64,000 nt of DNA, taken from the NCBI GenBank assembly GCA_905478415.1, contig CAJQIG010000004.1, positions 75,523 to 139,522 on the forward strand, given 5' to 3'. Each line of letters starts with the position of its first letter. Position 1 is the first letter of the stretch. Source of the stretch: an uncultured Patescibacteria group bacterium. Its GTDB lineage: Bacteria > Patescibacteriota > Microgenomatia > UBA1400 > PJMF01. Under the pieces are notes generated by a model. The model saw only the letters and a list, made by a program, of their open reading frames with translations. It made no database searches and was not told the DNA's origin. Position numbers and translations under genes: made by a program. Of this stretch, positions 14,216-43,818 are shown piece by piece.

Positions 14216-14242
14216 ATGGAGCTTACTTATTATAGCGTATAT

Positions 14243-14269
14243 ACAAAAATACCTCCCGGGAAGGGAGGT
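14243..14269 (-). terminator. Rho-independent terminator of the PH-domain gene
   Basis: ACCTCCC-gggaa-GGGAGGT 7-bp stem followed on the minus strand by a TTTTT run. Confidence 0.65.
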
Positions 14270-14295
14270 ATGCATCGTTATTTATTGATCAAATT

Positions 14296-14667
14296 TTACT
14301 TGAGAACATAACGTGCTAACGTCTGTTGGACAGCCAAAATATTGCTGCCCTTCTTAAAACGCTTAATCGTCGGAGCTGATTGGCCTTTAACCCAAATTTT
14401 TAGTTCTGAGTCAAGATCCCAGCTACCCGCCGTTTCAGTAGCAAACGCAATGATACTTGACCAGGGAATAGAAAGATATTCAACTTTCTTCCCTGTTAGA
14501 CCTTGCTTATCTACTAAAATTAAGCGCTTTGGTGTAAACACCATCATGTCACGAATAATTAAAAATGCTGTTTCTACGACTTCGCCTTCAATCAGAACAT
14601 CAGCAACTTCAGCTCGTGCATCTTCAACTGTCATCTCTGTGGCGTTTCCAAGTAAACCATGAAACAT
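14296..14667 (-). CDS. Bacterial PH-domain (YdbT/bPH-like) protein
   Basis: 123 aa all-beta sequence with the bPH-like pattern; weak recognition. Confidence 0.4.
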   Translation of the reverse strand: MFHGLLGNATEMTVEDARAEVADVLIEGEVVETAFLIIRDMMVFTPKRLILVDKQGLTGKKVEYLSIPWSSIIAFATETAGSWDLDSELKIWVKGQSAPTIKRFKKGSNILAVQQTLARYVLK

Positions 14668-14824
14668 TTTTTTCTCCTTTTTTTGAACAATAAATTGTAA
14701 AGATCATTGAGCACTACACTAAAAACGCTATTTTAATGCTCACTCAAGAGTATTATCGTATTCTATAGTAGATATTTTGCTTGTCAACAATTATGGGACT
14801 ATTTACAAATAAAAGCTATTAATT

Positions 14825-15631: not shown

Positions 15632-15632
15632 A

Positions 15633-16967
15633 TCACTGACTTATGTATGCTGTATATAAAAGGTTGTAATCAAAAATATCAATGAGACAACTACCCGTAA
15701 TATTCTTTTCACAACTTTCTGTAAGGAAGAGCTCTCTCAGAGCTGTGAAGTCCTGAACATCAATAACGTTATTACCATTGAGATCAGCTGACAGTCGTTC
15801 AACTGCCGTAATTGCTTCATTATTTGTTGTTTTCTTTGGTCGAGTTGTCGGACTTGGTCGAGGACTATTAGTTGATCCTGGTCGAGTACTTGGTGATGGC
15901 GTAGGTACAGCACTCGGTGCTGAGGTAGGAGAAGCTACAGGACTTGGGCTTGCTATCGGACTGATTGAAGGACTTGGCACTATCGTGGGATCAGGTGTTG
16001 GACTTGCCTGTGGAGAGGGAGTAATCGTTGGAGCAGGAGAGTCTCCAAAATGAGCCCAATGAAATAATCCCAAACTTAAACCAAAAGATGTATTTGAACT
16101 TACAATTACATTTAATTGAGCACTTACATCATGGCCTATTCCTGTCAAAACTTGCAGTGGTGCCACAGAAAAGTTTTGATTAACTAATAATCCCTGATAC
16201 TCACTTTGCCAACTGGTAATAGCTAGCTGCTCGCTTCCATTACTGAGTTTAACAGCCGGCTTAACACTTCCCAATGAAACCGTATTCTGGATAATCTGAC
16301 TCTGAACATCGTCACAACTAGCAAGTAAATAGCAGGCACTCGATAAGCTAGCAACAGAGCTGAAAAGTTCTGGATACTTAGTGGCATAGTAACTTGATCC
16401 AATACCACCCATAGAGAATCCCTGAATAGCACGTGCTTCTCTAGTTCCATACGTTCTAAAAGTAGCATCAACAACCGGGATCAACTCAGTAATCAACATT
16501 GTTTCTGGACAAGCTTTGGTTTGAGTACAATCTCCCACAGCATCAATGTAATTCAGTCCTTTTCCTCCGTTGGGAAAAATAACAATTGTCTTAGGGAGAG
16601 CACCGGCGTCTATAAGGCTTGGAAGACTATTGGCATTACCACTGGTTGAATTATGATAATTCCACTCATTACCATTTATTCCGTGAAGGAAGTAAATAAC
16701 CGGGTAGTATTCATTACTAGCCTCATATCCAGGGGGTAAATACACTGTATATCCTACTTCAGTTTGCATTGTGGAGCTAAAAAATGAGTAGTGGCTAATG
16801 TTAGCCGGACCATTAATTACAGATGGATAGTTCCATTTAACAGTCCCAGATTGTGCAAGCACGCTTTCTGGCTTAAAAAGTAAAAGCCCAATCAGTGAGA
16901 ATGTTACTAGTAAGAAGAGAAAACGGGACAACTTATGCATAGTTGGCATTATAAACAAATCGTTCAC
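15633..16967 (-). CDS. Secreted alpha/beta-hydrolase esterase (esterase D/PF00756-like) with Pro/Ser/Thr linker and C-terminal dockerin-like repeat
   Basis: Signal peptide; YPVIYFLHGINGN and GFSMGG nucleophile elbow; linker SPSPVASPTSAPSAVPTPSPS; C-terminal DLNGNNVIDVQDF matches a dockerin/EF-hand-like Ca-binding repeat. Confidence 0.65.
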   Translation of the reverse strand: MNDLFIMPTMHKLSRFLFLLVTFSLIGLLLFKPESVLAQSGTVKWNYPSVINGPANISHYSFFSSTMQTEVGYTVYLPPGYEASNEYYPVIYFLHGINGNEWNYHNSTSGNANSLPSLIDAGALPKTIVIFPNGGKGLNYIDAVGDCTQTKACPETMLITELIPVVDATFRTYGTREARAIQGFSMGGIGSSYYATKYPELFSSVASLSSACYLLASCDDVQSQIIQNTVSLGSVKPAVKLSNGSEQLAITSWQSEYQGLLVNQNFSVAPLQVLTGIGHDVSAQLNVIVSSNTSFGLSLGLFHWAHFGDSPAPTITPSPQASPTPDPTIVPSPSISPIASPSPVASPTSAPSAVPTPSPSTRPGSTNSPRPSPTTRPKKTTNNEAITAVERLSADLNGNNVIDVQDFTALRELFLTESCEKNITGSCLIDIFDYNLLYTAYISQ

Positions 16968-17008
16968 TCATACACAACCGCAAGTTTTTCGTATAAAAAT
17001 TAAGTTAC

Positions 17009-18469
17009 CTACTTTTCCAAGTCTAAAATTGAATCAATTCGAATCTGAGAGACAAAGTCATCAACGTGAGAAACCATGATCATGGTGCCCTGATAAGTGT
17101 CGAGCGCAGCTGCAATAACTGGTAAATGTCTGAAGTTGATGTGATTTGTTGGTTCGTCCAATATCAACAGACCAGGTGCCTGAAGCACTAATCTGGCAAA
17201 ACTAACTAATCCTTTTTGACCTTCTGAGAGATCTCTAATCTCTGTCTTAATTAATTGAGAGGTCATTAAAAAGCCTGAGGCCACAGCGCGTAGATGCTCC
17301 TCTGTACCGCTGCCATCTCCAGATAACATGGCTTCAACTAAGGATTGGTGCACAGTGTGAGAATAATCAAGTGTAGAAAAATCCTGACGATAGTAGCCAA
17401 CCCGCACTCCTGGAGAGATTTTGGCACCTACTGCAGTCCCACGAGCCATAGATTCAATCAAGGTCGTCTTCCCAATGCCATTTGGACCCTTCACCAGTAA
17501 ATGTTGATTTTTACCAAGTAAAATACGTGCTGGTTTGGTAATTTCTTGACCATCCTGCATAATGGTAAATGAATCAACAGTCATGACGGTACTTGGAACA
17601 TCCTTTTGAGCAGGAATCATAAACTTTCGAATCGTTTTATCTTCTTTACGAACTTCTACCTTTTCGCTTTCGTACGCCTCAACTTTTTCACGCATTTTTC
17701 TGGCTACGAGACGCATCTTGCCACCCTTATGGGCAAAGTAGTTAATTTTTTCTTTATTTTCCTGAATTTCTTTAGCCATACGAGCATTTTTGCGATTCTC
17801 TTTTTCAATTCTGGTCTTAATCTCTTCGACTACATCGTAGTACGTGCCAACATATTGTTCTACCTGTCGTTTATAGACATCTAGATATAAGACTCCATCG
17901 GTGAAGGTATTTAAAAAATCGGCATCATGAGAAATAACGAGGACTGTTTTTGGATAGGTCATCAAAAACACCATTAAGTGACCAATCCCCTCTGCATCTA
18001 AGTTATTTGTTGGTTCATCAAGCAGTAGAATATCTGGTTCTTGAATCAAAGCCGCTGCTAACAGCAATCGTGCCTGTTGGCCTCCCGAAAAATCATCCAC
18101 TACTTTTTCTAAATCTGCAGTCAAGTTTACTGCTCCCAGTGCTGCACTGATTCTTTTCTGCAACTCGTGAGGTTCCACATCCACCACTTTTCTAAAAAAA
18201 GCTTCGACTGTGAGTTTTCTCTCTTCTGGAGTAATAACTTGATGTGCTGTTGCTACTGTTAATTCTTTGTTGACTGCCACAATGCCAGATTGTGGCTGTA
18301 AATCGCCTGTGATCAACTTAAAAATAGTGCTTTTACCTGCCCCATTTTGGCCCATCAGTGCTACCTTCATGCCTCTACGCACCGTAAAGCTGACCTCTTC
18401 GAGAATTTCTCTTCGATAGCCATGTTCAAAGGTCACGTCGGTAAAGTTAATCACTGTTTCGTTTGACAT
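17009..18469 (-). CDS. ABC-F family ATPase (tandem ABC domains, no TMD)
   Basis: Two Walker A motifs (GQNGAGKST, GPNGIGKTT) and two LSGGQ signatures. Start moved to MSNETV (18469) to avoid overlap with the upstream peptidase gene. Confidence 0.85.
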   Translation of the reverse strand: MSNETVINFTDVTFEHGYRREILEEVSFTVRRGMKVALMGQNGAGKSTIFKLITGDLQPQSGIVAVNKELTVATAHQVITPEERKLTVEAFFRKVVDVEPHELQKRISAALGAVNLTADLEKVVDDFSGGQQARLLLAAALIQEPDILLLDEPTNNLDAEGIGHLMVFLMTYPKTVLVISHDADFLNTFTDGVLYLDVYKRQVEQYVGTYYDVVEEIKTRIEKENRKNARMAKEIQENKEKINYFAHKGGKMRLVARKMREKVEAYESEKVEVRKEDKTIRKFMIPAQKDVPSTVMTVDSFTIMQDGQEITKPARILLGKNQHLLVKGPNGIGKTTLIESMARGTAVGAKISPGVRVGYYRQDFSTLDYSHTVHQSLVEAMLSGDGSGTEEHLRAVASGFLMTSQLIKTEIRDLSEGQKGLVSFARLVLQAPGLLILDEPTNHINFRHLPVIAAALDTYQGTMIMVSHVDDFVSQIRIDSILDLEK

Positions 18470-18522
18470 ATAACAATTTGCTAGTGTATCACATTTTTGC
18501 CCTAAAAACTTGACTGATACCT

Positions 18523-19191
18523 CTATAAAAGAATAGGCAGAAGTTCTGAAAAAACCAGCCCTATTGCTCGTCTCTTCGTTTCTGTCGAACACTGGGTAGG
18601 AATTTCTGGCAAAATACCTCGCTTTGTCTTGTGGTTAAAAAGTAAGTAATCAGATAAATTTCCAGAGTGGGGATTTGGCTGCATGTGGCCTGAAGAAAAG
18701 TATCCATTCACAAATCTATGTCCAAGAGCTGGGTCGGCAGGGTCATCAACTCCGTCATACGTATCCAAATTTATTGCTGCTAATTTATTGGTAAACCGCT
18801 GCCACTTCTCCTGAGAAATAAGACCAGTATCGTAGAGATACAACTCCGAGAATTCATAATCTTCATGAATAGAAACAAACAACTCAAAAGAGTGTTGGTT
18901 AATAAGCTCCAAGTTATCTATGACTTCGGGATGAGTGCAAGTGGTAAAGAAATTTCGATTTACATCTAACCCATCTGCATTTTTTCTAGTTTTTTGAGCA
19001 ACTGCCGAAGGGCTGACTTCAGGAACATAAATAAAATCGGGTAACTGATCAGTGTGAGCTAGAATATATTCCCTTGTTGGCTCAATCACGCTCCATTCGT
19101 CACCATGGGTACCAGTATGGATCAGTAACTGAGGGTGCTCACCTTTTTGATAGTATGAGATCGTACCAAGTTTTTTTTCTTGAAGTTGCAT
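18523..19191 (-). CDS. M14-family zinc carboxypeptidase-like protein (AstE/AspA superfamily)
   Basis: HTGTHGDEW (HxxE zinc site), GLDVNRNF, SIHED motifs. Confidence 0.6.
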   Translation of the reverse strand: MQLQEKKLGTISYYQKGEHPQLLIHTGTHGDEWSVIEPTREYILAHTDQLPDFIYVPEVSPSAVAQKTRKNADGLDVNRNFFTTCTHPEVIDNLELINQHSFELFVSIHEDYEFSELYLYDTGLISQEKWQRFTNKLAAINLDTYDGVDDPADPALGHRFVNGYFSSGHMQPNPHSGNLSDYLLFNHKTKRGILPEIPTQCSTETKRRAIGLVFSELLPILL

Positions 19192-32181: not shown

Positions 32182-33165
32182 CTATAAATATAAAAAGTTA
32201 AACAAATATCCAATTAAAATTATTCCCACAATCGTTATCCCAAAGAAGAGTGCTAACAACTGCCACCGCATGACCTTCTTGAGTATGAGTGCTTCAGGAA
32301 TAGAGAGTGTGACCGTTGCAGTCATAAATGCTAAAGCTGTTCCTAATGGAATTCCCTTTCCTACAAACGCTTCAACCACGGGTATCACAGAGACAGAGTT
32401 AGCATAGAGAGGTACTCCCAAAATAACTGCTGCTGGGACACTCCACCATGTTTTCATTCCCAGATACTGTTCCAGTAAGCTCTGTGGTACATAACCATGG
32501 ATGATAGCTCCTATCGCTACGCCTAAAATGACATAGGGATACACTTTTTTCGTAATTCCCCAACCATCTACCCACCATAATTTTATTTTCTCTCCTAATT
32601 TTAGCTCGTTTCCTTCATTCTCCATTAACACTTGAGAATGATTTTTGAATTTCAAAAGAGACGATTCTACATAGTTTTCCATCTTCAATTTTTCAATCAA
32701 GATGCCCCCTAAGATACTGACTCCAATACCTACCAGGTTATACACAATTGTTGTCTTCATTCCAAATAATGCTGGGAAAAGAAATAGTGAAGACTCATTC
32801 ACTAATGGTGAACTAATCAAAAAGGTGAACGTAACTCCCATTGGTATTCCAGCCGAAAGAAAACCAATAAATAATGGAATAGATGAACAAGAACAGAAAG
32901 GTGTGACCACGCCAAGCAACGCCGCCAAAAGATAGTCCATCCCGTACCAGCGTCTCTTAGTAAGGACATCTCGCACTTTTTTCATCGGAAAATAAAATCG
33001 AGTAATTGCCATTAAATAATTAATAAAAATCAAGAGAATACCAATTTTGAGTACATCGTAGATAAAGAAACTACTAGCATTTCCTAAGTAACTATCTTGA
33101 GCTATGTTCAACCATAGATACGTAACTTTATCGGCAAAGGTTTGTAGAGGACTAAATATGTCCAT
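32182..33165 (-). CDS. arsP: ArsP/YraQ-family permease (putative organoarsenical or metalloid efflux)
   Basis: VVTPFCSCSSIPLF matches the ArsP TPFCSCS motif; 8-10 TM helices. Confidence 0.7.
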   Translation of the reverse strand: MDIFSPLQTFADKVTYLWLNIAQDSYLGNASSFFIYDVLKIGILLIFINYLMAITRFYFPMKKVRDVLTKRRWYGMDYLLAALLGVVTPFCSCSSIPLFIGFLSAGIPMGVTFTFLISSPLVNESSLFLFPALFGMKTTIVYNLVGIGVSILGGILIEKLKMENYVESSLLKFKNHSQVLMENEGNELKLGEKIKLWWVDGWGITKKVYPYVILGVAIGAIIHGYVPQSLLEQYLGMKTWWSVPAAVILGVPLYANSVSVIPVVEAFVGKGIPLGTALAFMTATVTLSIPEALILKKVMRWQLLALFFGITIVGIILIGYLFNFLYL

Positions 33166-33400
33166 AGATTTTTTCCTTGACCTTATCTTTATTCGAATTG
33201 AAACCGACCATAACGACTTTTCCGTCGACTACTAAAACTGGACTGCTCATTGCACCGGTTTTTAAAATTTCCTGGATACCTTTGTCACCGGTTATATACT
33301 CAACAACGTCAGTTTCATTCACTTCTGCGACAATTGTTTTTACCAGTTCATGTAATTTTTGACAAGTCTGACACCCGGAACCTAAAACTTTTATTTTCAT
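33152..33400 (-). CDS. Thioredoxin-fold redox-active disulfide protein (Thioredoxin_3-like)
   Basis: GSGCQTC motif; 82 aa; overlaps the arsP start. Confidence 0.7.
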   Translation of the reverse strand: MKIKVLGSGCQTCQKLHELVKTIVAEVNETDVVEYITGDKGIQEILKTGAMSSPVLVVDGKVVMVGFNSNKDKVKEKIYGHI

Positions 33401-33412
33401 ATCACATTCCTT

Positions 33413-33733
33413 CTACATACTAAATACCAACTCAACTATCCTTACTCCTTTTGGAGTCAAGCTGTAATAAACCTGCAAGCCTGTTTTTTTTCCTACAATT
33501 AGTTTAGCTTTTCGTAAATCAGCTAAGTGGTGAGATAACAAACTTTGAGATAACTGGACATGTTCAGAAAACTCACACACACAGTGAGTGCCTTGTCTAA
33601 GAATACAAAGAATTTTTAGTCTACTTGGCTCAGCAACTAATTTGAGAAGTGTAGACAAACTATCAATACGACTAAACTCTGTATCACTTGGCTGGCAACA
33701 ACTATATGAATGCATATTCATATAGTACATCAA
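33413..33733 (-). CDS. arsR: ArsR-family repressor with CVC metalloid-binding motif
   Basis: HTH plus HCVCEF, matching the ArsR As(III) site ELCVCDL. Confidence 0.8.
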   Translation of the reverse strand: MMYYMNMHSYSCCQPSDTEFSRIDSLSTLLKLVAEPSRLKILCILRQGTHCVCEFSEHVQLSQSLLSHHLADLRKAKLIVGKKTGLQVYYSLTPKGVRIVELVFSM

Positions 33734-33846: not shown

Positions 33847-34044
33847 TTAAGATTCGTACTCTTTTGTTGCACCGTTCTCTAGTGCTCTTTCAGCATTAGC
33901 TTTAGACATCATTGCACAAACAGTTGTTCCACACTTCTCGTGCTTCCCTTTGGCCATGAAACCACCTTTTTTAGTTTTGTGAATCCCTGGTGCTGACAAT
34001 TCAACGCCTTTTTCCTTACATTTAACGCAGTATCCTGTGACCAT
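33847..34044 (-). CDS. DUF5679-family small zinc-ribbon protein
   Basis: CVKCKEK...KCGTTVCAM Cys pattern typical of DUF5679. Confidence 0.55.
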   Translation of the reverse strand: MVTGYCVKCKEKGVELSAPGIHKTKKGGFMAKGKHEKCGTTVCAMMSKANAERALENGATKEYES

Positions 34045-34223
34045 GTCGATCTCCCTTTAAATTATATCTTGTTGCATTATAACGCCATTTTATGTTGATT
34101 CATACCTTAAAGGTAAAAGCAGGCAAACCTAGAGGTTGTTTTTCCTAGCAAACTTAGAATTTCGTGTCAGAAAAAAATAAATAAAGTTGAGGCTCGCTGT
34201 CGTGGATGAAGTTAGGAACTGTT

Positions 34224-34427
34224 TTATTTAGCTTCTTCTATCTGTTTAGGTGGACATTTACTATCTGCATAAGAACAAAAAACACAACAATCACCTTTTT
34301 TAGGAGTCATTGTCTTTTCACATTTCTCACACTTGAAAAAGTGCTGACAAGCATCTGTCGGCATTTCAGAAATTTGATCATGACCACAAAAGGGGCAAGT
34401 TATTGTAGCAGTTGTTTTTATTTCCAT
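34224..34427 (-). CDS. Cys-rich small zinc-ribbon protein (10 Cys in 67 aa)
   Basis: CPFCGH...CQHFFKCEKCEK...GDCCVFCSY...CPP. Confidence 0.4.
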   Translation of the reverse strand: MEIKTTATITCPFCGHDQISEMPTDACQHFFKCEKCEKTMTPKKGDCCVFCSYADSKCPPKQIEEAK

Positions 34428-34570
34428 GCTTCCATCATAGCAGGTTCGAGCCTCCTATTCGGGTTATAAAAAATACTCGAGGAAAAACCTCGTGCTCCCC
34501 GCTCTTGAAGAAGTTAGGAACGGATTACTTTTAACAAACTACATGCCACCACAATCTCTGTAAGCCCTAT

Positions 34571-35002
34571 CTAGTTCACTTTTCTAACCTTCACCAAGTC
34601 ATCAACACCCTCAACAGAAATCTGCCTACCATTAACACCATCAATTACCATCGCATTTGGTAAATGTGCGTATCGGTACTTGTATTTGCCCTCAGTCTGC
34701 TCCCAAACTTGACCATTCTGAAACTGAAACTTCATTCCATGATTAAAACCTTCAAATTTTGAGGTAATTCTGCCCTCAGTCACTATTTGAATTTGTTGCA
34801 CCTCTACCGTGTCATTCATTCCTTCAATACTGATAACATAACTACCAGTAGAATTAGGTTTAATGACCACAGCAGGTCGATAAGCATAATGGTAGTTATA
34901 CTTATACACACTCTGCTGCCAAACTTGTCCATTATCTAGTTTAAAGACGGATTCACCATCAAACCCATGGAACTCACCTTCTATGTGACTATGTATTGTC
35001 AT
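34571..35002 (-). CDS. Hypothetical protein with two tandem ~67-aa beta-rich repeats (possible di-Ubl/beta-grasp)
   Basis: Internal duplication: GEFHGFDGESVFKLDNGQVWQQSVYKYNYHYAYRP... vs SKFEGFNHGMKFQFQNGQVWEQTEGKYKYRYAHLP... Last gene of the cassette operon. Confidence 0.5.
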   Translation of the reverse strand: MTIHSHIEGEFHGFDGESVFKLDNGQVWQQSVYKYNYHYAYRPAVVIKPNSTGSYVISIEGMNDTVEVQQIQIVTEGRITSKFEGFNHGMKFQFQNGQVWEQTEGKYKYRYAHLPNAMVIDGVNGRQISVEGVDDLVKVRKVN

Positions 35003-35351
35003 AATTTTCCTCCAATTCTCTGTACCATACTATTCTACCGCTATTTAACCAAAAGTGGCTTTTACATCCCTTTAGTCTCCATATTGAAGGAGATAGCGAA
35101 GGTCGTTTCTTTTTTACTGTCATCTCCCAACGAGGATGCACATCTTCTTGACAATTTAAATAGATTTTTGCTCCACAACCACAAGGGCACTTGAGAATGA
35201 AATACCATTGATAGCCATTTTCGCCGACCACATATAAGACCTTGTCCTTTACTGACTTTGGATTAAAACTCTGCACTGAAACAATTTTAAAGTATTCATC
35301 AAACCCAATTTTATTTCTAAGCCAACGGACAAAAGTATTTACTATTTTCAT
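34989..35351 (-). CDS. Zinc-binding Cys/His cluster protein (possible treble-clef/RING-like), 120 aa
   Basis: LKCPCGCGAKIYLNCQEDVHPRW...KGCKSHFW; 4-nt overlap with the JAB-E1 gene. Confidence 0.45.
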   Translation of the reverse strand: MKIVNTFVRWLRNKIGFDEYFKIVSVQSFNPKSVKDKVLYVVGENGYQWYFILKCPCGCGAKIYLNCQEDVHPRWEMTVKKKRPSLSPSIWRLKGCKSHFWLNSGRIVWYRELEENYDNT

Positions 35352-36745
35352 AGTGATGGGTATCCCAGTACTACTTTCTGGTCACCTAGACCAATCTTTT
35401 TCACTAAACTAGTATCTATTCCTCTTGATTTGATTGGCTCAATATAACTATCCAAAAGACTCATCCTCAAGCTCACAATTTCAGTATCTAAACCAAATCT
35501 AAGACCATGTAGTCTATTAAGTAACTCTAGTATTCCAAAGCTAGCAGCGAATGAGTTAGGAGTAATAACTGCAGGAACTTCTTCTGGTAGTCCAGGTAAG
35601 TAACCCTCATCAAGCTGCTTTCTGTATTCTTCTCTGTTGGAGGCTTTCATAGATGCAGCAGCTAATTGTGATGAATTAAAAATCCCCCGTTTATGAAGTG
35701 ACTCACCTGGTAAAATATAGTCTGCTCTTGCTGATACATGCTCAACCCCTCCATTACCATCAATCAAAATTTTCACTCCTACATCTATTATTGGAATTAG
35801 ATAGTATGTCCCCATGCGGTTGATAACCTGCCTTGCATATACATCATCAACACAGCTAAATAAAACATCGCACCCTTTCAAAAAATCAACTGCAGCTCGG
35901 CTTGCGATACTTTCTTGCATTACATTAACAGTTGTTCCTAAACCAAGTTCATTTGCATATCTAACAAATACATCTACCTTTGACGACTTATTTTTGACAT
36001 CTCCTGTTGTCGCCCCAACAATTCTATTAAGATTTTTTGCTTCAACTATGTCTGGGTCAATCAAGGTAAGAGACTGAACTCCATAATGAAGCAGCTGTTG
36101 GATAACTAAACTTCCTGTACCAGAACAACCAATTACTCCAACACGAAGCTTTTTTAGTTTTGATAAGGTTTCTGACCCAAAAACCTGATGTGACCTTTTT
36201 TCATGCTCAGCTAATTCACCGATATTTTTTATTTTGGGCGATATTCTGTCCCCAACCATAAGAACGTCATCCACATCTTCAAATTTTTCTTGATTGAAAA
36301 CTCTTGCTTTTATTACACCATCTGGCAAAAGTATTGCACTCATGAATGAATTCTCTCTTCCTAGCCAAGAATGGACAGTATTTGCTAGCGACTTATCAGA
36401 GATATCATCTGCATTCGAGAATGTCTCAATGCCCGAGGGGTGACTATGAATCTTAAGTATTCCATAGGAACCATCAATGTATTCACTCAATTTTTCTGCC
36501 AGAAGAGCCGTCTTCCAAGTTATATGAGATTTAGAACGACTCTTAATTTCTTCTAAATTAAAAGGGACTATCTCGTGAACCAAAAAAATAATTTCACCTT
36601 TACTTTCTGCAACTCCACATACAACAATAGCCACCGATTCCTTTGAGTCCCCAGGGTAAAGATAACCTTTTATTTCTGTTAGCTGCGGTTCTGTAATTCT
36701 CAGCCTAATCGATTTTTTCATGCTAATGTCTCTTTTTCCAACCAA
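35348..36745 (-). CDS. JAB/JAMM deubiquitinase-like domain fused to E1-like (ThiF/MoeB) adenylyltransferase domain
   Basis: N-terminal JAMM motif E...HSHPSGIETFSNADD (HxHx7Sx2D). C-terminal Rossmann VGVIGCSGTGS...LIDPDIVEAKNLNR typical of E1/ThiF. Confidence 0.8.
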   Translation of the reverse strand: MVGKRDISMKKSIRLRITEPQLTEIKGYLYPGDSKESVAIVVCGVAESKGEIIFLVHEIVPFNLEEIKSRSKSHITWKTALLAEKLSEYIDGSYGILKIHSHPSGIETFSNADDISDKSLANTVHSWLGRENSFMSAILLPDGVIKARVFNQEKFEDVDDVLMVGDRISPKIKNIGELAEHEKRSHQVFGSETLSKLKKLRVGVIGCSGTGSLVIQQLLHYGVQSLTLIDPDIVEAKNLNRIVGATTGDVKNKSSKVDVFVRYANELGLGTTVNVMQESIASRAAVDFLKGCDVLFSCVDDVYARQVINRMGTYYLIPIIDVGVKILIDGNGGVEHVSARADYILPGESLHKRGIFNSSQLAAASMKASNREEYRKQLDEGYLPGLPEEVPAVITPNSFAASFGILELLNRLHGLRFGLDTEIVSLRMSLLDSYIEPIKSRGIDTSLVKKIGLGDQKVVLGYPSL

Positions 36746-37440
36746 GTAGTAACCTGGAGAATGTGTGTGCCAACCCCATCTACATCAGACCTCCATTCAT
36801 CAGCGCTTTTTCTATGTCTTGACCACCTTTGGAAAGATTGACCCTTAATTTGTTGTTCTGATATTTTTTCTACAGTTTTTTTTGAATTTAGAGTTAAATG
36901 TGGGTGAAAGTATGCCATATCAATCTGCACATCTGGATATGCTGGAGGAATCATCAATGCTAAAGTTGCTCTCTTTTGGTCATATCCATGCGGAACTTCA
37001 AAGTCATAGAGAAGGAGCCAGTTACTGGCTCCTTCCTTTATTGCTTCCCATTTTTTGAAAGATTTAGTGAGATGGCTTTTGTCATCTTCAGGTAAATCAA
37101 AATCATTCCCATCACCCTCTGTTTGGTCAAGTGGCATTGTTATGAATCGTTCTACACCAGGTCGTGTTAAGTTGATTATTTCGTCATAATCAATGCGTTG
37201 AACTTGTCCTCCATGTAGTTTTTGACTAATCATAAACTGCTCCACGGGTGTTTTACCTGCAAGCTCGAGCAACGAACGACCTGATATGGTTTCTGTATTA
37301 ACCACGAAATGCTGGCGGTCGATGAGAATTTTATATCTACGTCCTTTCGGAATAGGCTTTTTAGACCTTGCATGAGCTTGGAGGTCAATTACCTCAGCTT
37401 TACTAGCTTCTACTGTTTTGTTGGGGGTGTCATTAGACAT
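36718..37440 (-). CDS. Ubiquitin-like (multiubiquitin-type beta-grasp) domain fused to an E2/UEV-like domain that has no cysteine
   Basis: N-terminal YKILIDRQHFVVNTETISGRSLLELAGK...IDYDEIINL beta-grasp pattern. C-terminal LALMIPPAYPDVQIDMAYFHPHL resembles the UBC fold up to the HPN-like motif, but there is no Cys anywhere in the protein. Confidence 0.55.
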   Translation of the reverse strand: MSNDTPNKTVEASKAEVIDLQAHARSKKPIPKGRRYKILIDRQHFVVNTETISGRSLLELAGKTPVEQFMISQKLHGGQVQRIDYDEIINLTRPGVERFITMPLDQTEGDGNDFDLPEDDKSHLTKSFKKWEAIKEGASNWLLLYDFEVPHGYDQKRATLALMIPPAYPDVQIDMAYFHPHLTLNSKKTVEKISEQQIKGQSFQRWSRHRKSADEWRSDVDGVGTHILQVTTWLEKETLA

Positions 37441-37533
37441 ATCCCTCCTTTATCGCCTGTCCAAAGCAATACTTTATATAAACAGGGTTTTCAATAGAAA
37501 CTGTATGCTATACAATGAAAGTGTAACGTCACT

Positions 37534-37607
37534 GCAACAGTTGTTTCATTCCAACCCTGTGTGAGTTGGACTAAAAACTAGTTATACACCAACGAAACAG
37601 CTGTTGC
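37534..37607. promoter_or_regulatory. Pair of near-palindromic 14-bp sites GCAACAGTTGTTTC / GAAACAGCTGTTGC in the divergent promoter region; candidate XRE-repressor operators
   Basis: Two inverted copies (13/14 identical) at 37534-37547 and 37594-37607, between the Ubl operon and the XRE gene. Confidence 0.4.
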
Positions 37608-37639
37608 AAGTGTTAAACACTTAGGATATACTAACTACT

Positions 37640-38002
37640 ATGAGCAAACTTACAATTCAACGTATTGGCATCGAGATAAAAAACAAAAGAGGCACCAAAG
37701 GATTAAGAGAAACAGCTAAAATAATCGGAGTAAGTGCTGCAACACTTTCAAGAATTGAATCTGGAAAACAACCCGATTTAGATACATTTGTCAAAATCTG
37801 TAAGTGGCTCGAAATCAACCCCTCAGAAATACTTTCTTTTGAAGAAACTCAGCCCTTTTCCTCAGACGACGTTAACAACAATAGTTTCACATCAGCACAT
37901 TTAAGAGCAAATAGAGAACTCTCTCCTGAAACCGCTAGTCATTTAACACAGGCTATACTTTCCATGCGTGAATTCCTCTCTATGAACGATGATGTTTCAT
38001 AA
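37640..38002 (+). CDS. XRE-family helix-turn-helix transcriptional regulator (CapH/ImmR-like)
   Basis: LRETAKIIGVSAATLSRIESGKQ HTH_3 motif. Confidence 0.75.
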   Translation: MSKLTIQRIGIEIKNKRGTKGLRETAKIIGVSAATLSRIESGKQPDLDTFVKICKWLEINPSEILSFEETQPFSSDDVNNNSFTSAHLRANRELSPETASHLTQAILSMREFLSMNDDVS

Positions 38003-38010
38003 GGGGTGTC

Positions 38011-38577
38011 ATGTCAAACTTCAAACTTAACCCAGGATTCAAGAGATGGTGCGAGAAAGCTGCAACTGCTTTTCGAAGTGAATTTGGTCTCCTGGCAACT
38101 GCTGCTCTTCCATCAGAAAAAATGGCTGAATATCTGAATGTTCAGGTTGTTGAATTTTCTGAGTTGAGAATCCCTGCTGAATCTAAGACATATTTGCTGA
38201 CACAAGGTTCCAAAGAATGGTCTGCAGCAACTGTATCTAGCTCAAAAAAAACAGTTATTTTAATCAATGAAAGTCATACTGAGGAAAGAAAAAACAATAG
38301 CCTTATGCATGAGCTCTCTCATATTATTTTGAAGCACGAGCCATCAAAGTTTACCAACCTACTCGAAGCTGGTATTTCCTTTCGCACATACGATGAAAAG
38401 CTTGAAAAAGAAGCTGATTGGCTCGCCGCAACACTACTTCTTCCCAAAGATGTTTTAGAAACTATTGGAGCAATAGTTTCTAAGGCTGATATAGAGAGAA
38501 AACACACCGTAAGTCCAGAGCTTCTTAGATTTAGGTTGAATCTAACTGGAATTGGTAAGAAAATTAAAAATCAATAA
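38011..38577 (+). CDS. ImmA/IrrE-family zinc metallopeptidase (CapP-like)
   Basis: SLMHELSHIILKHE HExxH motif; located immediately downstream of the XRE gene. Confidence 0.7.
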   Translation: MSNFKLNPGFKRWCEKAATAFRSEFGLLATAALPSEKMAEYLNVQVVEFSELRIPAESKTYLLTQGSKEWSAATVSSSKKTVILINESHTEERKNNSLMHELSHIILKHEPSKFTNLLEAGISFRTYDEKLEKEADWLAATLLLPKDVLETIGAIVSKADIERKHTVSPELLRFRLNLTGIGKKIKNQ

Positions 38578-38582
38578 AAGAA

Positions 38583-39035
38583 CTAACCCAAAGTAACATA
38601 GAAAAATGTTCTTTTTATTATCAGGTGACATGCAGATACCAAGAACGATGATATTGTTGAAAAAAGTATAAAAGCTATGATATCAGTTTCGTAAAAAATT
38701 TCTGCATTATGCTCATTGCAACTTATATAGCTCACCACCTGCCCCTCTTCATATCCTTGACTTCTTAAACTCTTAAATTCCTGTACCTTGGCTGGAGAAA
38801 TGCCCTGAGGAAGAATTACCTCATCTTTCTTCCCAAACCCTTTAAATTCATATTCTGGTTTAGACAAATAAGTTGAGCAGTCTTTATATCCATCCGTTGG
38901 TTTCTGAGACATCGAATAGCTAACACCAAACCCCACCAAGACAGTAAAAATAAGACCAAAAGTGTAAATTACTTTTATCAACCTTGTAAAGGGATTTTTC
39001 TCAAGTATATTTTGGTTTTGTTCGTTTTTTTTCAT
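38583..39035 (-). CDS. Hypothetical membrane protein
   Basis: N-terminal and C-terminal TM helices; no recognisable motif. Confidence 0.4.
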   Translation of the reverse strand: MKKNEQNQNILEKNPFTRLIKVIYTFGLIFTVLVGFGVSYSMSQKPTDGYKDCSTYLSKPEYEFKGFGKKDEVILPQGISPAKVQEFKSLRSQGYEEGQVVSYISCNEHNAEIFYETDIIAFILFSTISSFLVSACHLIIKRTFFYVTLG

Positions 39036-39096
39036 ATTTTCTTTGGCATGTACGCCAAAGACATTTTATCTCAACTTTGGCATAAAGACCATATAC

Positions 39097-39327
39097 ATGT
39101 TGAATAAAAATCAAATTGATTTAATCAAACAAACATTTGGTGAAGTAGTAAAAGAACTCAGAGACCAACACAACTTATCTCAAGAAAAACTTGGATTCGC
39201 TGCCGACCTCGACTTAACATCAATCAATGAAATTGAAAAAGGTCACAGAAACCCAAAGCTAACTACAGTATGCAAGCTTGCAAAAGCACTTGGAGTTAGC
39301 CCTTCTGCCTTATTAAAAAACCTTTAG
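39097..39327 (+). CDS. XRE-family HTH regulator (small)
   Basis: LRDQHNLSQEKLGFAADLDLTSINEIEKGHRNPKLTTVCKLAKALGV; start taken at MLNK. Confidence 0.6.
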   Translation: MLNKNQIDLIKQTFGEVVKELRDQHNLSQEKLGFAADLDLTSINEIEKGHRNPKLTTVCKLAKALGVSPSALLKNL

Positions 39328-39677
39328 ATTTCATCGTCCTCATCTACAAACATAATTTTCATTGGTTGGCTACTAACCTCTACTTCAATAGTTCCAAACT
39401 CTTCTCTAGCTTTCTTCTCTAAATACCACTTCGCCACTCCTACACTGTCTAAATTATCAAAAATAGTTTTTCTTGCTTTTAACACCGGATTAATTTTCCA
39501 GGTGTTTTTTTGCTCCGAAAACTCATTATTTTCTTGTTGATATAGGTAGAGTGTGCTTTGAGAAATATCTGCGTAAATACAGGCTTCTCTATCAGTACAT
39601 CCCATCAAAAAAGCTTCTCTTAATCTCGAAATAGTTTCTGGAGTCATGATAGTTGGTCTACCTAATTGTTCGCTCAT
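39324..39677 (-). CDS. Hypothetical HTH-containing protein (terminase-small-subunit/transposase-HTH-like)
   Basis: RPTIMTPETISRLREAFLMGCTDREACIYADISQSTLY resembles HTH_23-like folds; weak. Confidence 0.35.
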   Translation of the reverse strand: MSEQLGRPTIMTPETISRLREAFLMGCTDREACIYADISQSTLYLYQQENNEFSEQKNTWKINPVLKARKTIFDNLDSVGVAKWYLEKKAREEFGTIEVEVSSQPMKIMFVDEDDEI

Positions 39678-40024
39678 GCTTCTAGTCTAACAATTTTTAT
39701 TTCAAAACATTACTTTCTTGAAAAGTAATTTTCTCAAGGAGCTGAGCAATTTTTTCTAAAAGGTAAGGTTTTGCAATCGAAATCTGTAAGCTGTAAGAAC
39801 AAGCGGGCTTCATGTGAGTCCCCATCAGTACATCTTCTAGCCCCAGGTGTACTGACAGGGGTTCAAATCTCCCAAAAACGCAAAAATGAACAAATCAGCA
39901 AACCCATTGCCAAAAGAAGCAGTGGAAGAATACCAGCGTATCTATTTCAGTGCCTATGGAAAGCAGCTTCCATACGAGGAAGCTGAATTAAGTGGTGCCA
40001 AACTCATACAACTGATTATGTTAA

Positions 40025-40600
40025 TTGAAAGGGCTGAGGATGCAAACAATCAACCTTAATCCTTTACATGGTATTAAACAAATGAGCATGGGTTACTTTA
40101 CAATTCCAAGGGTTGTCATATTGGAGTTAATAAAAGAAAAACATCTAAACCTTACAGAACTCGGCTATTTTATTATCTTGATTACTATAGCTGATTGGGA
40201 CAAAGGTAGATTCCGTAATGGCTTTATACGTTACGAAATAAGTGAATTAGCAAAGGTGCTAGAAATATCTGAATCTAGCTTGTACAAGTATATAGCTAAG
40301 TTTAAAAAAATTGGACTCATAACTGAGACAAGAAATGTTTGTAAAATTGAAAATTATAAAGATTTTACTCTACGAGGCTCCCAAGAAATAAGCAAAGTAC
40401 CTCTTTCAATAGAAAAATACCTAGTACTATTTCCACATTTAGCTAGTGAAGATTCCAACATCATGGAACATGCCCAGGCTAACACAGCATCTAACTTTAA
40501 TAATTCTTTTAAGAGTTCTTTGGGGGATTCTTTAGGAGTTGGATTACAAGAGGAAAGAAAAAAGCTAATCAAATCTAAAACAGTAAAGAGTATAAAATAG
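40025..40600 (+). CDS. Hypothetical island protein (possible winged-helix DNA-binding)
   Basis: No recognisable motif; position upstream of the recombinase. Confidence 0.35.
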   Translation: MKGLRMQTINLNPLHGIKQMSMGYFTIPRVVILELIKEKHLNLTELGYFIILITIADWDKGRFRNGFIRYEISELAKVLEISESSLYKYIAKFKKIGLITETRNVCKIENYKDFTLRGSQEISKVPLSIEKYLVLFPHLASEDSNIMEHAQANTASNFNNSFKSSLGDSLGVGLQEERKKLIKSKTVKSIK

Positions 40601-40608
40601 GAGTTATT

Positions 40609-42216
40609 ATGAAACGTGTTTTTATGTACTGCAGAAAATCAAGTGAAGATAAGGGTAAACAGATACTCTCAATAGACGACCAAAAACGTGAATTATGGCG
40701 AATTGCTAAAAACCTAAACTTAAAAGTAATTGATGAGCCAATCGAAGAAGTAAAGTCAGCTAAAGCACCAGGAAGACCAAAGTTTAGTGAGTTGGTAAAA
40801 AAAATCTATAATAATGAAGCTGATGGTATTTTATGTTGGAAACTAGACCGACTTGCTAGAAATCCCATTGATGGTGGCAACATCATTTGGATTGTAAAAG
40901 ACCAAGGAAAGGTTATTTACACACCTTCTCAAACCTTCTCCCATCAGTCAGAAAATACTATCATGATGTACATCGAGTTTGGTATGGCACAAAAATACAT
41001 TGATGATTTAGGAAAAAGCGCAAAAAGAGGCATGAAAACAAAAGCTGAGATGGGGTGGTATCCTGCTCATGCTCCACTTGGTTATGAAAATACACCTGGT
41101 GAAAAGAAAGGTTCAAGAAAAATAATAAGTGATAATAATTTCAAGCTAGTTCAACGGTGTTTTTACGAAATTCTCAAAGGCAAACAAGCTTCACATGTTT
41201 GGAGAAAAGCTAGAGAAAAATGGGGGTTAAAGTCAAAAAAAGGGAATCCCGTTGCTCACTCTACTTTTTACAACATATTAACTCACCCCTTTTACTATGG
41301 TGAATATGAGTGGCCTCGTGGTAGTGGAAATTGGTACCAGGGAAAGCATGAGCCAATGATTACCAAAGAGCAATTTGATGTTGTGCAAAAAATGTTAGGA
41401 AAAAATGGAAAGCCAATCTCTAGGAGTCATACTTTTGATTTAACTGGACTCTTTAGATGTTCAATCTGTAGCTGCGCAATTACTGCCACAAAAAAAACTA
41501 AACACTATAAAACTACAGGAAGAATTGCAGAATACACCTATTATCACTGTTCCAAGAAAAATCAAAATATCAAGTGTTCACAACCCCCTGTCAGTGAAAA
41601 AGACTTCGAGAACGAAATTATGAAGCAACTAATGATGCTCAGACCTCCAGAGGAGTTTGTGACTTGGGCGAAAAAATGGATTAAAACTGTACATGACTAC
41701 GAATCTCAAACAGAAGAAGAAATACTTGCATCTCAAAATAAAGAGCTTGAATCAGTCGAAAATCAGCTGAGCAATTTACTTGATTTGCGTATCAGAAGTG
41801 ATATTGACGACTCAACATATAGGAGCAAAAAAACACTCCTTGAACAGGAAAAATTGACTGTTAAAAGAAAGATTAACGAATCAGGAAACAACCTTTCATC
41901 TCTTAGAATTAGAGTAGAGAACGCTATCGACATAGCCTATGGCTCACATCTAAGGTTTAAGACTGGAAAACGTGAGACAAAACAAGAGATTCTAGTGAGC
42001 CTTGGCTCGAACCTCATCTTAAATCATAAAAAAATACGGATAGACCTGTTAAAACACTTTGAAGTCTTTAGAGATAATGAAAAATGGGAAGATACATATG
42101 AAGATTGGCTCGAACCTCAAAAATACATGGAACTATTCGAAAAAAGACCTGATTTGCGACCTGCAAATCCAGTATGGCTCCCCCGGGAGGATTCGAACCT
42201 CCAACCTACCGGTTAA
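40609..42216 (+). CDS. Large serine recombinase (resolvase/invertase N-domain + recombinase domain + zinc ribbon). The 3' end of the ORF reads into tRNA-Asn, so the true stop may be earlier.
   Basis: YCRKSSEDKGKQ...SIDDQ (catalytic Ser); recombinase-domain and CxxC...C zinc-ribbon region; 535 aa. Confidence 0.8.
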   Translation: MKRVFMYCRKSSEDKGKQILSIDDQKRELWRIAKNLNLKVIDEPIEEVKSAKAPGRPKFSELVKKIYNNEADGILCWKLDRLARNPIDGGNIIWIVKDQGKVIYTPSQTFSHQSENTIMMYIEFGMAQKYIDDLGKSAKRGMKTKAEMGWYPAHAPLGYENTPGEKKGSRKIISDNNFKLVQRCFYEILKGKQASHVWRKAREKWGLKSKKGNPVAHSTFYNILTHPFYYGEYEWPRGSGNWYQGKHEPMITKEQFDVVQKMLGKNGKPISRSHTFDLTGLFRCSICSCAITATKKTKHYKTTGRIAEYTYYHCSKKNQNIKCSQPPVSEKDFENEIMKQLMMLRPPEEFVTWAKKWIKTVHDYESQTEEEILASQNKELESVENQLSNLLDLRIRSDIDDSTYRSKKTLLEQEKLTVKRKINESGNNLSSLRIRVENAIDIAYGSHLRFKTGKRETKQEILVSLGSNLILNHKKIRIDLLKHFEVFRDNEKWEDTYEDWLEPQKYMELFEKRPDLRPANPVWLPREDSNLQPTG

Positions 42217-42249
42217 CAGCCGGGCGCTCTGCCATTGAGCTACAGGGGA
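42175..42249 (-). tRNA. tRNA-Asn (anticodon GTT), CCA encoded
   Basis: Hand-folded cloverleaf: acceptor UCCCCUG/CGGGGGA, D-stem GCUC/GAGC, anticodon loop CUGUUAA, T-arm GGAGGUUCGAAUCCUCC, discriminator G plus CCA. Close to E. coli tRNA-Asn. Confidence 0.85.
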
Positions 42250-42357
42250 TTGTGTCGGAATGTGATGTTTATATAAAAGCAGGTACCAAACCACAAACAG
42301 AATTAAAAGAACTTTGTTATTTTACCACACCTGGAAAGCAAGTAAACAAGAACCAAC

Positions 42358-43818
42358 CTATCTTAAGCTACTACTTTGAATCTCGGAAGCAGTAATACTC
42401 GTAAACACACCTGGTTCATAGGCGTGCATAATCTCAGTTATTAATTTTTCGAAGTTGCGATTAAAATCTATTCTGAGTCGAACTATCTCTATATCAAAAA
42501 CCTCTATTTCTTCCTTAAGGGCCTTTCTTTCTTCTCCATTCTCCTCTGGAGTCTTCATAAACTGTTCTTTGAGAGGTTTGAGTAACTGCCACTGAGCTGC
42601 AATTTTTTCATGTTGAGAAACTACCCGATCTGCAATATCTCTCAAGGGTGGGTGTGTTGCTATAAAATCAAGGTATTCAGACAAATAAGCTCTATCTTTA
42701 TATCGTGGATCCTGTTCGCCTACCAGCAGGAGTGTCAGCAAAAAAATTTGCTCATTATCCGCTCTCATAACAGCCACAACTTTTTCAAAGTCTTCAGGTG
42801 GCGAGTTATTTAAATGATAGTTTATAGCCTCACAGGAAAAATTACTTCCATATGAATCGAAGATACACTTTTTCAAGTAGTCTGATAGAGACGCACTTCC
42901 CAGCACATCGTTACTGTAGACAAGGTTATACTTCTGAAAAGAAGATGGATCATTTCCAGTAAAAATGTCAGAAATGTTTAAACCTGAGATCACATCTTGC
43001 ACTGTGTCACGAGGTTGTTTGAGATCTTCGGGATGTGCATGAACTTTAGGAACTGGGTAGAGTTGTCCCCAAAGCCAAAACAAATCTTCTTGATTCTCAC
43101 CTGCGACTGGATTGGGGCGACTTTTTAGATGTGGAAACTCTCCCTTACCATGGGTCAAAATAGCCCGGGTAATAACCTTAGTAATAACTTCAACCTCTTC
43201 AGGTGAAAGGTCAATAAGGCCCTTCTCAGCTGCCATTTTTAAGGCCTCTCCAACTAACTGGCCACCCGTCAAAGTACTTGCTAACTCATGGAGCGTCAGC
43301 TTCATATTGCCATTCTGGTCATACTTATGAGAATCGTGAACCAATGCTGCCATCTGTAAAATCATGTTATTGGGATAAAATTTCTTAGCAAGATCAGCAA
43401 CTGCTTGATAATGCAGCAACTCATTCCGAACAACATCAGGATTCACTCCCTTATTGACTAGAGAAGCCTCAATTGCAGTCAACAGAACACCATTCCAGCC
43501 ATCAGCCCCAAACAAAAGTGTTTGAATGGCAGGGTTTTCTAAAAATTTCGTATTGACCGTATCTACAAGGTCGCGTTCTTCTTCAGTGAATACAGAAGCT
43601 TCAACTTTTTTTCTCTCCACTTGTAAGGGTGAGTGTAAGAAGGCTTCGACTTTTTCTTCTTTCGTCCCTGCCTGAGCAATTGCCTCAAACGTTTCTGTGC
43701 CTTTTTGATAGGCACCTCTCACTGCCTCACTCTTCAGCAAGTCAGCTGCAAATATCTGTCTCTCTGGAAGAGACACAGACACCTCTGTTTCTACAACTAA
43801 TGATCTGTCTTCAAACAT
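42358..43818 (-). CDS. HD-domain phosphohydrolase-like protein
   Basis: LHYQAV...AALVHDSHK matches the H...HD motif. Confidence 0.5.
   Translation of the reverse strand: MFEDRSLVVETEVSVSLPERQIFAADLLKSEAVRGAYQKGTETFEAIAQAGTKEEKVEAFLHSPLQVERKKVEASVFTEEERDLVDTVNTKFLENPAIQTLLFGADGWNGVLLTAIEASLVNKGVNPDVVRNELLHYQAVADLAKKFYPNNMILQMAALVHDSHKYDQNGNMKLTLHELASTLTGGQLVGEALKMAAEKGLIDLSPEEVEVITKVITRAILTHGKGEFPHLKSRPNPVAGENQEDLFWLWGQLYPVPKVHAHPEDLKQPRDTVQDVISGLNISDIFTGNDPSSFQKYNLVYSNDVLGSASLSDYLKKCIFDSYGSNFSCEAINYHLNNSPPEDFEKVVAVMRADNEQIFLLTLLLVGEQDPRYKDRAYLSEYLDFIATHPPLRDIADRVVSQHEKIAAQWQLLKPLKEQFMKTPEENGEERKALKEEIEVFDIEIVRLRIDFNRNFEKLITEIMHAYEPGVFTSITASEIQSSSLR

Follow-up and report, generated by a model that had tools for sequence, protein, structure and literature searches.

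A probable 7.7-kb integrative element at tRNA-Asn(GTT) in a Patescibacteria genome, with a large serine recombinase gene that reads into the tRNA

The window analyzed here is a 64,000-nucleotide stretch of contig CAJQIG010000004.1 (positions 75,523 to 139,522, forward strand) from an uncultured Patescibacteria group bacterium, in which a gene for a large serine recombinase (LSR) runs into a tRNA-Asn(GTT) gene on the opposite strand. An initial annotation, made from the letters of this DNA and its open reading frames (ORFs), had read the arrangement as the integration site of an island lying on the 3' side of the tRNA. The features on which our analysis of this putative element rests are listed below in window positions, with attP and attB denoting the attachment sites of element and host, P/P' and B/B' their arms, and attL and attR the left and right junctions.

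40609–42216 (+): LSR gene, 535 amino acids (ORF list, Pfam, PHROG)
42175–42249 (−): tRNA-Asn(GTT), intact, CCA encoded; putative integration target and B' side of attR (ARAGORN, Rfam)
42177–42183: attR core GCTCCCC, complement of tRNA positions 74–68 (first C of CCA, discriminator, top of the acceptor stem)
42154–42161: P-arm motif TTGCGACC, quasi-palindromic partner of the P' motif at the mirror position (aligned by eye), putative zinc-ribbon-domain site
42190–42198: B' motif GATTCGAAC in the tRNA T-loop region, putative zinc-ribbon-domain site of attB, with its end 21 nt from the final G of TGG
42141–42169 (−): terminator-like hairpin GATTTGC-AGGTC-GCAAATC with T-run AGGTCTTTTT, 5 nt past the CCA, within LSR codons PDLRPANP
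34494–34500: attL2 core GCTCCCC; inner junction, most likely the left end of the LSR-bearing element
34507–34521: attL2 P' arm motif GAAGAAGTTAGGAAC, with its end 27 nt away from the core G, 6 bp beyond the register of the tRNA T-loop motif
34468–34492 (−): terminator-like hairpin CGAGG-TTTTT-CCTCG with T-run AGTATTTTTT, adjoining the outer side of attL2
34191–34219: attL1, a GGCTC core (34191–34195) and a second P' arm GATGAAGTTAGGAAC (repeat D3); outer or older junction
34224–34427 (−): Cys-rich ORF of 67 amino acids between attL1 and attL2 (Pfam: weak Zn_ribbon match only)

The recombinase ORF is uninterrupted and has the sequence hallmarks of a serine integrase, namely a resolvase-type catalytic domain with the arginine and the serine nucleophile (Resolvase, PF00239, 2.3e-21, residues 4–149) and, C-terminal to it, the Recombinase domain (PF07508, 3.2e-13) and a zinc β-ribbon (Zn_ribbon_recom, PF13408, 1.1e-9). 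The family-invariant Y7, R9, and S11 are all present, R9 and S11 being the same in all 25 aligned homologues, this protein among them, and the PHROG match is to the integrase family phrog_95 (1.5e-69). The tRNA is the only one called by ARAGORN in the window; the call, tRNA-Asn(GTT), was confirmed as a tRNA by the Rfam tRNA model (42178–42249, 68.8 bits against a gathering score of 29), and its 3' end reads ...GGGGGAG-CCA. The two genes overlap by 42 nt (42175–42216), that is, by 13 sense codons and the stop, which bears out both the read-through and the roughly 14 antisense codons of the initial annotation. Public gene calls place a "protein" of 73 amino acids over the tRNA-Asn, both here (42174–42395, +) and in a related locus (L115, 11424–11645); this ORF is spurious.

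A homology search with the LSR returned more than 3,000 relatives, of which the best 120 were inspected. These are 39–67% identical to the query (plus one identical copy) and mostly 520–580 amino acids long; their named sources are few, and all are called Patescibacteria, or candidate phyla radiation (CPR). The majority of the 120 C-termini have the form ...RPANPxWLP(R)xDSNxxP, which is a tRNA 3' end translated antisense, TGG corresponding to the CCA and GAT-TCG-AAC to the T-loop. The stop falls at varying positions within the tRNA, at times directly after WLPR, so the tRNA-encoded tail itself looks incidental. When the surrounding loci were fetched (17 from genomes, 13 from viral contigs, 80 from metagenomes, and several by exact protein look-up), 103 non-redundant LSR copies were obtained, mostly from Patescibacteria (CPR) genomes and from metagenomes; the genome-contig scan was queried with one protein and yielded just 17 loci, and the viral-contig scan gave distant relatives only (identity ≤39%). 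An antisense tRNA called by ARAGORN contains the LSR end in 48 of the 103 copies, with Asn as the target in 22, Gln in 9, Ser in 5, His in 4, Glu and Gly in 2 each, and Tyr, Met, Leu, and Trp in 1 each. A further 15 copies end in T-loop-like sequence without a tRNA call, 19 have a different conserved tail, 15 fall into no other class, and 6 run off the contig end. By this comparison, read-through into the tRNA is a family-wide design and not a quirk of the window locus.

Two loci in the class without a tRNA call (L005 and L007) contain tRNA-Asn(GTT) genes with a group I intron in the anticodon loop, which were missed by ARAGORN and recognized by Rfam:

L005, 11607–11856 (−): tRNA-Asn(GTT) group I intron, 100 bits
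L007, 11606–11828 (−): tRNA-Asn(GTT) group I intron, 72 bits

The genes beyond these tRNAs are housekeeping genes, as in the right flank of the window: rpoD in both, enolase (eno) and iPGM (gpmI) in L005, and a primase-domain ORF in L007. The sequence GGACTATCTCAT that follows the tRNA "3' half" in L003, L005, and L007, with variants in L053 and L062, is probably the intron end. We had considered a tRNA 3' half followed by GGACTATCTCAT as a half-tRNA attP or a second, tyrosine-type element, and rejected both on the basis of the Rfam introns and the downstream housekeeping genes. In L004, from the same Shapirobacteria genome as L001, a second LSR copy enters a tRNA-like stretch with T-loop spacing (11540–11590, TGGCTCCGGCAAATGGGATCGAACTCC) in which neither ARAGORN nor Rfam called a tRNA; the stretch may have been a target that decayed, or may be a pseudo-attB. 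Four distant relatives on long contigs, all with P'-type tails (L037, L066, L087, and L094), have no tRNA within 10 kb.

The tRNA-encoded CCA coincides with the Trp codon TGG of the LSR. In four related loci (L006, L009, L012, and L031) the LSR-adjacent tRNA likewise encodes CCA, whereas the neighboring tRNAs do so in 0 of 6, 0 of 4, 0 of 8, and 1 of 7 cases, respectively, and at attL2 the sequence of the displaced native end is ...GAGCAC rather than ...GAGCCA. Because the neighbors mostly lack CCA and the native end reads GCAC, the CCA is most likely donated by the element. The statement in the initial annotation that the tRNA carries its own CCA thus holds for the encoded CCA itself but most likely not for its being the tRNA's own. 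Where WL is replaced by LL or ML, as in some LSR subfamilies, no CCA is supplied. The hairpin at 42141–42169, which we interpret as an element-supplied tRNA terminator, has counterparts: of 40 related target loci, 19 have a hairpin with a T-run at the equivalent place, compared with an expectation of 3.1 from shuffles, and the stems covary among loci (GCCGAG/CTCGGC, GCCACG/CGTGGC, TGGCGG/CCGCCA, and GGACTCTGGGAG/CTTCCAGAGTCC). The last ~25 integrase codons therefore seem to carry four overlapping functions, as protein, P arm, tRNA terminator, and CCA.

The arrangement of motifs around the core was compared on a scale that starts at the final G of TGG. On this scale all canonical tRNAs have the end of the T-loop motif (G)ATTCGAAC at position 21, the position of the B' motif being fixed by canonical tRNA architecture. 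LSR copies with alternative tails have [DE][DE][VI]R[TN] some 8–10 residues past WL (for example WLRVVDDMRT and WLRLLDDIRT), encoded by GAnGAnGTT(A/C)GAAC. The P' motif within this DNA, GTT(A/C)GAAC, resembles the tRNA T-loop TTCGAAC and lies 5–6 bp farther from the core, ending at 26 in L002, L065, L094, L087, L054, L075, and L112 and, with one extra base, at 27 in both window arms and in L117. On the opposite side of the core, the P-arm motif TTGCGACC is kept at the nucleotide level among relatives although the proteins are only ~50% identical. Rutherford et al. reported that serine integrases tell attP from attB by the position of the zinc-ribbon motif, at bp 16–24 and 11–19, respectively (PMC3783163), and the 5-bp outward shift of the putative P' motif relative to the T-loop motif fits this attP/attB signature. 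Given that the motifs of P and P' are symmetrical, the 11–19/16–24 rule of PMC3783163 would place the putative crossover dinucleotide at ~42178–42180, inside GCTC, at the discriminator and acceptor-stem top.

The 3' region of the LSR gene also contains two copies of a 14-mer, TGGCTCGAACCTCA (42000–42016 and 42103–42119, +), in different frames (GSNL and WLEPQ), and L112 and L007 preserve the DNA sequence of both copies. The 14-mer resembles a tRNA end minus the acceptor and T-stem (core GGCTC plus TCGAAC), and its own core, GGCTCGAACCT, occurs once inverted at 34441–34451, just outside attL2. It could be an accessory or pseudo-site, or a coincidence of two conserved peptide motifs.

The absence of a long direct repeat of the tRNA 3' end, noted in the initial annotation, was reproduced with a 25-nt probe, which matched only itself in the window at up to 3 mismatches, and a general repeat search of the window gave mostly chance pairs, except for D3 (the two P' arms) and D4. 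The core GCTCCCC at 42177–42183 is, however, repeated at 34494–34500, where GTTAGGAAC, the conserved motif of the P' arm, comes after it. The window has just two copies of the 12-mer GAAGTTAGGAAC, one at 34208 and the other, 302 bp away on the same strand, at 34510. The link that had been drawn to serine-recombinase chemistry was supported likewise, the common core being 7 bp only with no tRNA-fragment repeat. Joining the P arm at 42.18 kb to the attL2 P' arm would give the predicted attP junction CCAGTATGGCTCCCCGCTCTTGAAGAAGTTAGGAAC and an LSR tail ...NPVWLPALEEVRNGLLLTNYMPPQSL, which resembles that of homologue P0077, ...WLPALEQIRTSIFT (...NPVWLPALEQIRTSIFT...); the corresponding attB junction is predicted to read AAAACCTCGTGCTCCCCCGGGAGGATTCGAACC. 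Joining instead to attL1 would give the alternative attP junction CCAGTATGGCTCGCTGTCGTGGATGAAGTTAGGAAC and a tail ...WLAVVDEVRNCFI, similar to that of P0028/L002, ...WLRVVDDMRTYFL. The hairpin at 34468–34492 looks like the displaced native terminator of tRNA-Asn (B arm). The element is thus most likely the 7.7 kb at ~34495–42180 with its left end at attL2. The initial annotation had left this boundary open at around 33.8–34.5 kb; the range was right, both junctions (34494–34521 and 34192–34219) falling inside it, and the boundary can now be placed by core and P' motif.

We interpret the ~300 bp that separate attL1 from attL2 as either a remnant or a mini-cassette that lacks an LSR. Short segments of this kind are found on the tRNA-distal side in the window (34191–34500, with the ORF of 67 amino acids), in L117 (3489–4609, with a Fic gene), and in L112 (2525–4190, ~1.6 kb); a P' arm and a copy of the core from the tRNA end form their boundaries, and no P arm is recognizable in them. 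Such segments could be deletion remnants or mini-elements mobilized in trans. Left of the hot spot lie genes for an ArsR-family regulator, a small thioredoxin, and an ArsP-type permease (32182–33733, −), then a DUF5679 zinc-ribbon gene (33847–34044); these are presumed to be host genes, and synteny with L117 is not conserved on this side.

Related loci show the same junction motifs in other settings. The tRNA-end core of the locus itself, with the P' motif at equal spacing, recurs 10–16 kb upstream of the target tRNA in L054, L075, L006, and L112, twice in the last of these. L112 contains an LSR with a non-tRNA tail; after it come a 6-kb block (SDH-protease, EcoRI-methylase, and GmrSD/HNH genes), a second LSR, and a tRNA-Asn into which the second LSR reads. 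The two LSRs (10001–19014; 556 and 489 amino acids) both read through TGGCTCC and head two stacked defense islands, and no sequence similarity between them was detectable in the comparisons made; it follows that the tRNA-end strategy is common to more than one LSR lineage. A non-tRNA tail can, on this pattern, mark the place where the P arm of one stacked element meets the P' arm of its neighbor, which is equivalent to an attP. Long-contig LSRs with non-tRNA tails, which had appeared to contradict the attP reading, were accounted for by the tandem-array junction of L112, apart from the more distant L037, L066, L087, and L094.

L117, the only moderately close relative of the window host available (66% identity in a flank protein of 486 amino acids), provides the comparison with a related genome that had been called for. 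An identical tRNA-Asn lies beside the same flank genes (YibE_F and the 486-residue protein), with no LSR and a lone Fic gene, after which GTTCCGTAAC...GGGGGAGCCAAAT, a P' arm plus a 13-bp tRNA-end repeat, leads into an unrelated host gene. The content at tRNA-Asn is thus variable and bounded by the P' arm of the family, and rather than the same gene order without an indel, the tRNA in this relative is followed by different content. The cargo of close LSR relatives at tRNA-Asn also differs, with a Zeta-toxin-like gene in L119 and a reverse-transcriptase gene beside an HTH (helix-turn-helix) gene and an EcoRI-type methylase in L120. DUF5659 is carried by L111, L112, and L120; an HTH_36 gene lies just upstream of the LSR in L112 and L119 as well as in the window, and the gene at this place in L111 and L120 has no Pfam match.

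Taken with the family-wide association with tRNAs, the core and P' arm junctions support the integration reading of the initial annotation: ~34,495–42,180 is very probably a 7.7-kb integrative element that its own LSR inserted at the 3' terminus of the host tRNA-Asn(GTT) gene. We propose a mechanism of which the first three steps are supported by sequence comparison and the last three are inferred. In the free form, attP would span the last LSR codons, with ...TTGCGACC-N15-TGG as the P arm, GCTC as the core, and N15-GTTAGGAAC, from the other end of the element, as the P' arm. The attB site would be the tRNA 3' end, with the native terminator as B, the core at the discriminator and acceptor top, and the acceptor, T-stem, and T-loop as B'. 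The zinc-ribbon-domain motif would be the T-loop TTCGAAC in one site and its P' look-alike in the other, 5 bp apart in register as in characterized serine integrases. Arms would then be exchanged by a 2-bp staggered cut in GCTC (~42178–42180). The tRNA would keep positions 1 to ~72 from the host and receive from the element the discriminator, the CCA (TGG codon), and a new terminator (the PDLRPANP hairpin), the native terminator being moved to attL. The LSR ORF would finally continue antisense into the tRNA until a fortuitous stop, leaving a tail of ~13 residues as a by-product of integration. Since each insertion would recreate a usable tRNA end, tandem stacking would be possible, which would account for there being a second P' arm, at 34,192.

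Several observations weigh against this reading. The crossover dinucleotide is inferred, not observed, and the B arm is a weak half-site match only. Two P' arms are present with no recognizable P arm in the ~300-bp segment between them, and no P' arm was found in L001, L008, L031, L119, and L120 within the 10 kb available. An empty attB was not found in the same species, where all 11 contigs with an identical flank protein carry the island; the right-flank protein has just two non-identical homologues, and the contig of one ends at that gene. Neither an excised nor a tandem form was found, both predicted attP-form proteins being absent by exact look-up from a collection of 15 billion proteins. 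No family of recombination directionality factors (RDFs) was recognized in the island; candidates for this role are the small ORFs at 39771–40059 and a winged-HTH (wHTH) protein of 191 amino acids.

The last three of these points are also what would be expected if the island had integrated as described and had since become fixed and lost its mobility, its LSR being kept or domesticated. This is possible, if doubtful: the LSR ORF is intact with all residues that are invariant in the family, the motifs are kept at both junctions, and the lack of excised forms in assemblies is weak evidence.

It is fairly unlikely that the island is instead a single element of 8.0 kb whose true left end is attL1 (34192), with attL2 as a pseudo-site inside it or a duplicated arm, and with the hairpin at 34478–34492 terminating a neighbor of the 67-residue gene and not the tRNA. 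The P' motif and its spacing are the same at attL1, and the outer flank there is T-rich on the minus strand, but the match to the tRNA end is 7 bp at attL2 (GCTCCCC) versus 4–5 bp at attL1 (GGCTC), and a terminator adjoins attL2 exactly at the place expected for a tRNA terminator. Stacked remnants are, moreover, common, as seen in the paired P' arms around short LSR-less DNA in L112 and the Fic-only mini-island of L117.

Mobile elements often carry tRNAs, and this one lies directly beside the recombinase; it could on that account be cargo of an element with its true attachment site elsewhere. We consider this highly improbable, given that L117 has an identical tRNA at the same host flank genes (YibE_F and the 486-residue protein) with no LSR, that the tRNA in L005 and L007 is followed by host genes (rpoD in both, eno/gpmI in L005) as in the window, that L112 stacks two unrelated LSR elements against one tRNA, and that the P' arm and core repeats bracket the island with the tRNA body outside. 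A chance overlap of the ORF with a convergent tRNA gene, unrelated to integration, would suit the variable stops and unconserved tail length but is effectively refuted by the same overlap in 48 of 103 homologues and ten tRNA species, by the coincidence of the Trp codon with the CCA, and by the recurrence of the junction motifs.

The 7.7-kb element, as delimited by attL2 and attR, contains three further groups of genes upstream of the LSR.

34571–37440 (−): cargo operon encoding an unknown protein of 143 amino acids, DUF6527/BubE, JAB-E1 (ThiF), and Multiubiquitin-E2 family E (Pfam)
37640–38577 (+): HTH gene and M78/IrrE-type peptidase gene, divergent from the cargo operon (capP match, 1.4e-13)
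38583–40600: backbone of a membrane-like ORF of 150 amino acids (−), an HTH_3 regulator (+), a small-terminase-like gene of 117 amino acids (−), small ORFs, and a wHTH/DnaD-like gene of 191 amino acids (+)

By its domain content the cargo operon is a ubiquitination-like (Bub/6E-type) cassette, of which PADLOC 2023 recognizes the E1 part only; the protein of 143 amino acids contains an internal duplication (repeat D1, 34659/34875). The HTH and M78 pair resembles the CapH/CapP regulators of CBASS. In the backbone, the protein of 117 amino acids (39324–39677, −) has a remote match to the phage small-terminase family phrog_4102 (2e-15), and the wHTH protein upstream of the LSR (40025–40600, +) is DnaD/RepA_N-like with a remote match to phrog_186 (3e-8). 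No capsid, structural, or conjugation genes were found among the island ORFs, and the island is therefore a small integrative defense island, possibly of a satellite-like kind. The combination of small-terminase-like, DnaD-like, integrase, and repressor-type HTH genes bears some resemblance to the backbone of phage-inducible chromosomal islands (PICI-like), which would be unusual for CPR bacteria.

In comparison with known systems, the proposed site model would follow the paradigm of the Listeria A118/LI integrase. The LSR shares with phage-type large serine integrases (A118/LI, phiC31, Bxb1, and SPbeta SprA) a three-domain architecture, short att sites with minimal attP/attB identity, quasi-palindromic half-sites, and an outer motif 5 bp farther in attP (PMC3783163). 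Unlike those integrases, whose targets are protein-coding or intergenic, it appears to use tRNA 3' ends, with the near-universal T-loop and acceptor as attB' and with attP lying across the last codons of the integrase, so that the antisense tRNA terminator and CCA fall inside its coding sequence. Like Islander-type and P4-like tyrosine-integrase islands at tRNA and tmRNA genes, the element lies on the 3' side of a tRNA that is left functional and can occur in tandem arrays; unlike them, it has no displaced tRNA-fragment repeat, only a core of 4–7 bp (13 bp in L117), and no island ORF has a Phage_integrase-type match to a tyrosine recombinase. Elements with attP inside a gene, whose product changes on integration, include those with SSV1-type integrases and the mycobacteriophages with integration-dependent immunity; these use tyrosine recombinases, the integrase gene being split in SSV1 and a degradation tag being removed in the mycobacteriophage case. 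There, too, the integrase ORF crosses the crossover and the C-terminus differs between free and integrated states, but here only a short, poorly conserved tail would be exchanged.

The one counter-example that our search found to tRNA genes being targets of tyrosine integrases only is a serine recombinase with a tRNA gene (tRNA-Met) as predicted integration site, described in Paracoccus phage vB_PamS_Pami6 (PMC6536676); this is a single predicted case from an alphaproteobacterial phage, and the accessible part of that report describes no family pattern, site architecture, or overlap with the recombinase gene. Hudson et al., in their work on Islander, stated that only tyrosine-family integrases were known to target tDNAs (PMC4383910), and the word tRNA is absent from the large LSR survey of Durrant et al. 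Our literature search, which was of incomplete coverage, found no published tRNA-targeting LSR family, and an earlier description is possible. The mechanism class is thus established, and what appears undescribed in the literature we found is the specialization on tRNA ends, the T-loop in the role of outer motif, and the way in which attP, CCA, and terminator overlap the end of the integrase coding sequence.

We can extend the proposal, in a form that we judge quite unlikely as a whole, to a large, mostly Patescibacteria-associated LSR clade specialized on tRNA 3' ends. Such a clade would use the T-loop and acceptor as attB', which would explain its hopping among at least 10 tRNA species, would carry attP, CCA, and terminator in its last ~25 codons, and would possess in the tail, free (...WLxxx[DE][DE]VR[TN]...) or integrated (tRNA-antisense), a possible sensor of integration state that affects stability or directionality.

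Genes for tRNAs are classic landing pads of tyrosine integrases, and the window locus and its ~100 relatives indicate that a serine-integrase lineage uses them as well. If the site model holds, the motif that these enzymes recognize is found in almost all tRNAs, and they function in CPR bacteria, where genetic tools are scarce; they would be candidates for integration vectors and for the study of how serine integrases are retargeted. For the bacteria themselves, tRNA-Asn emerges as a stacking hot spot for defense islands in reduced genomes, the cargo being a Bub/ubiquitination-like operon in the window and, elsewhere, reverse-transcriptase and HTH genes, methylase and GmrSD-HNH genes, a Zeta-toxin-like gene, or Fic.

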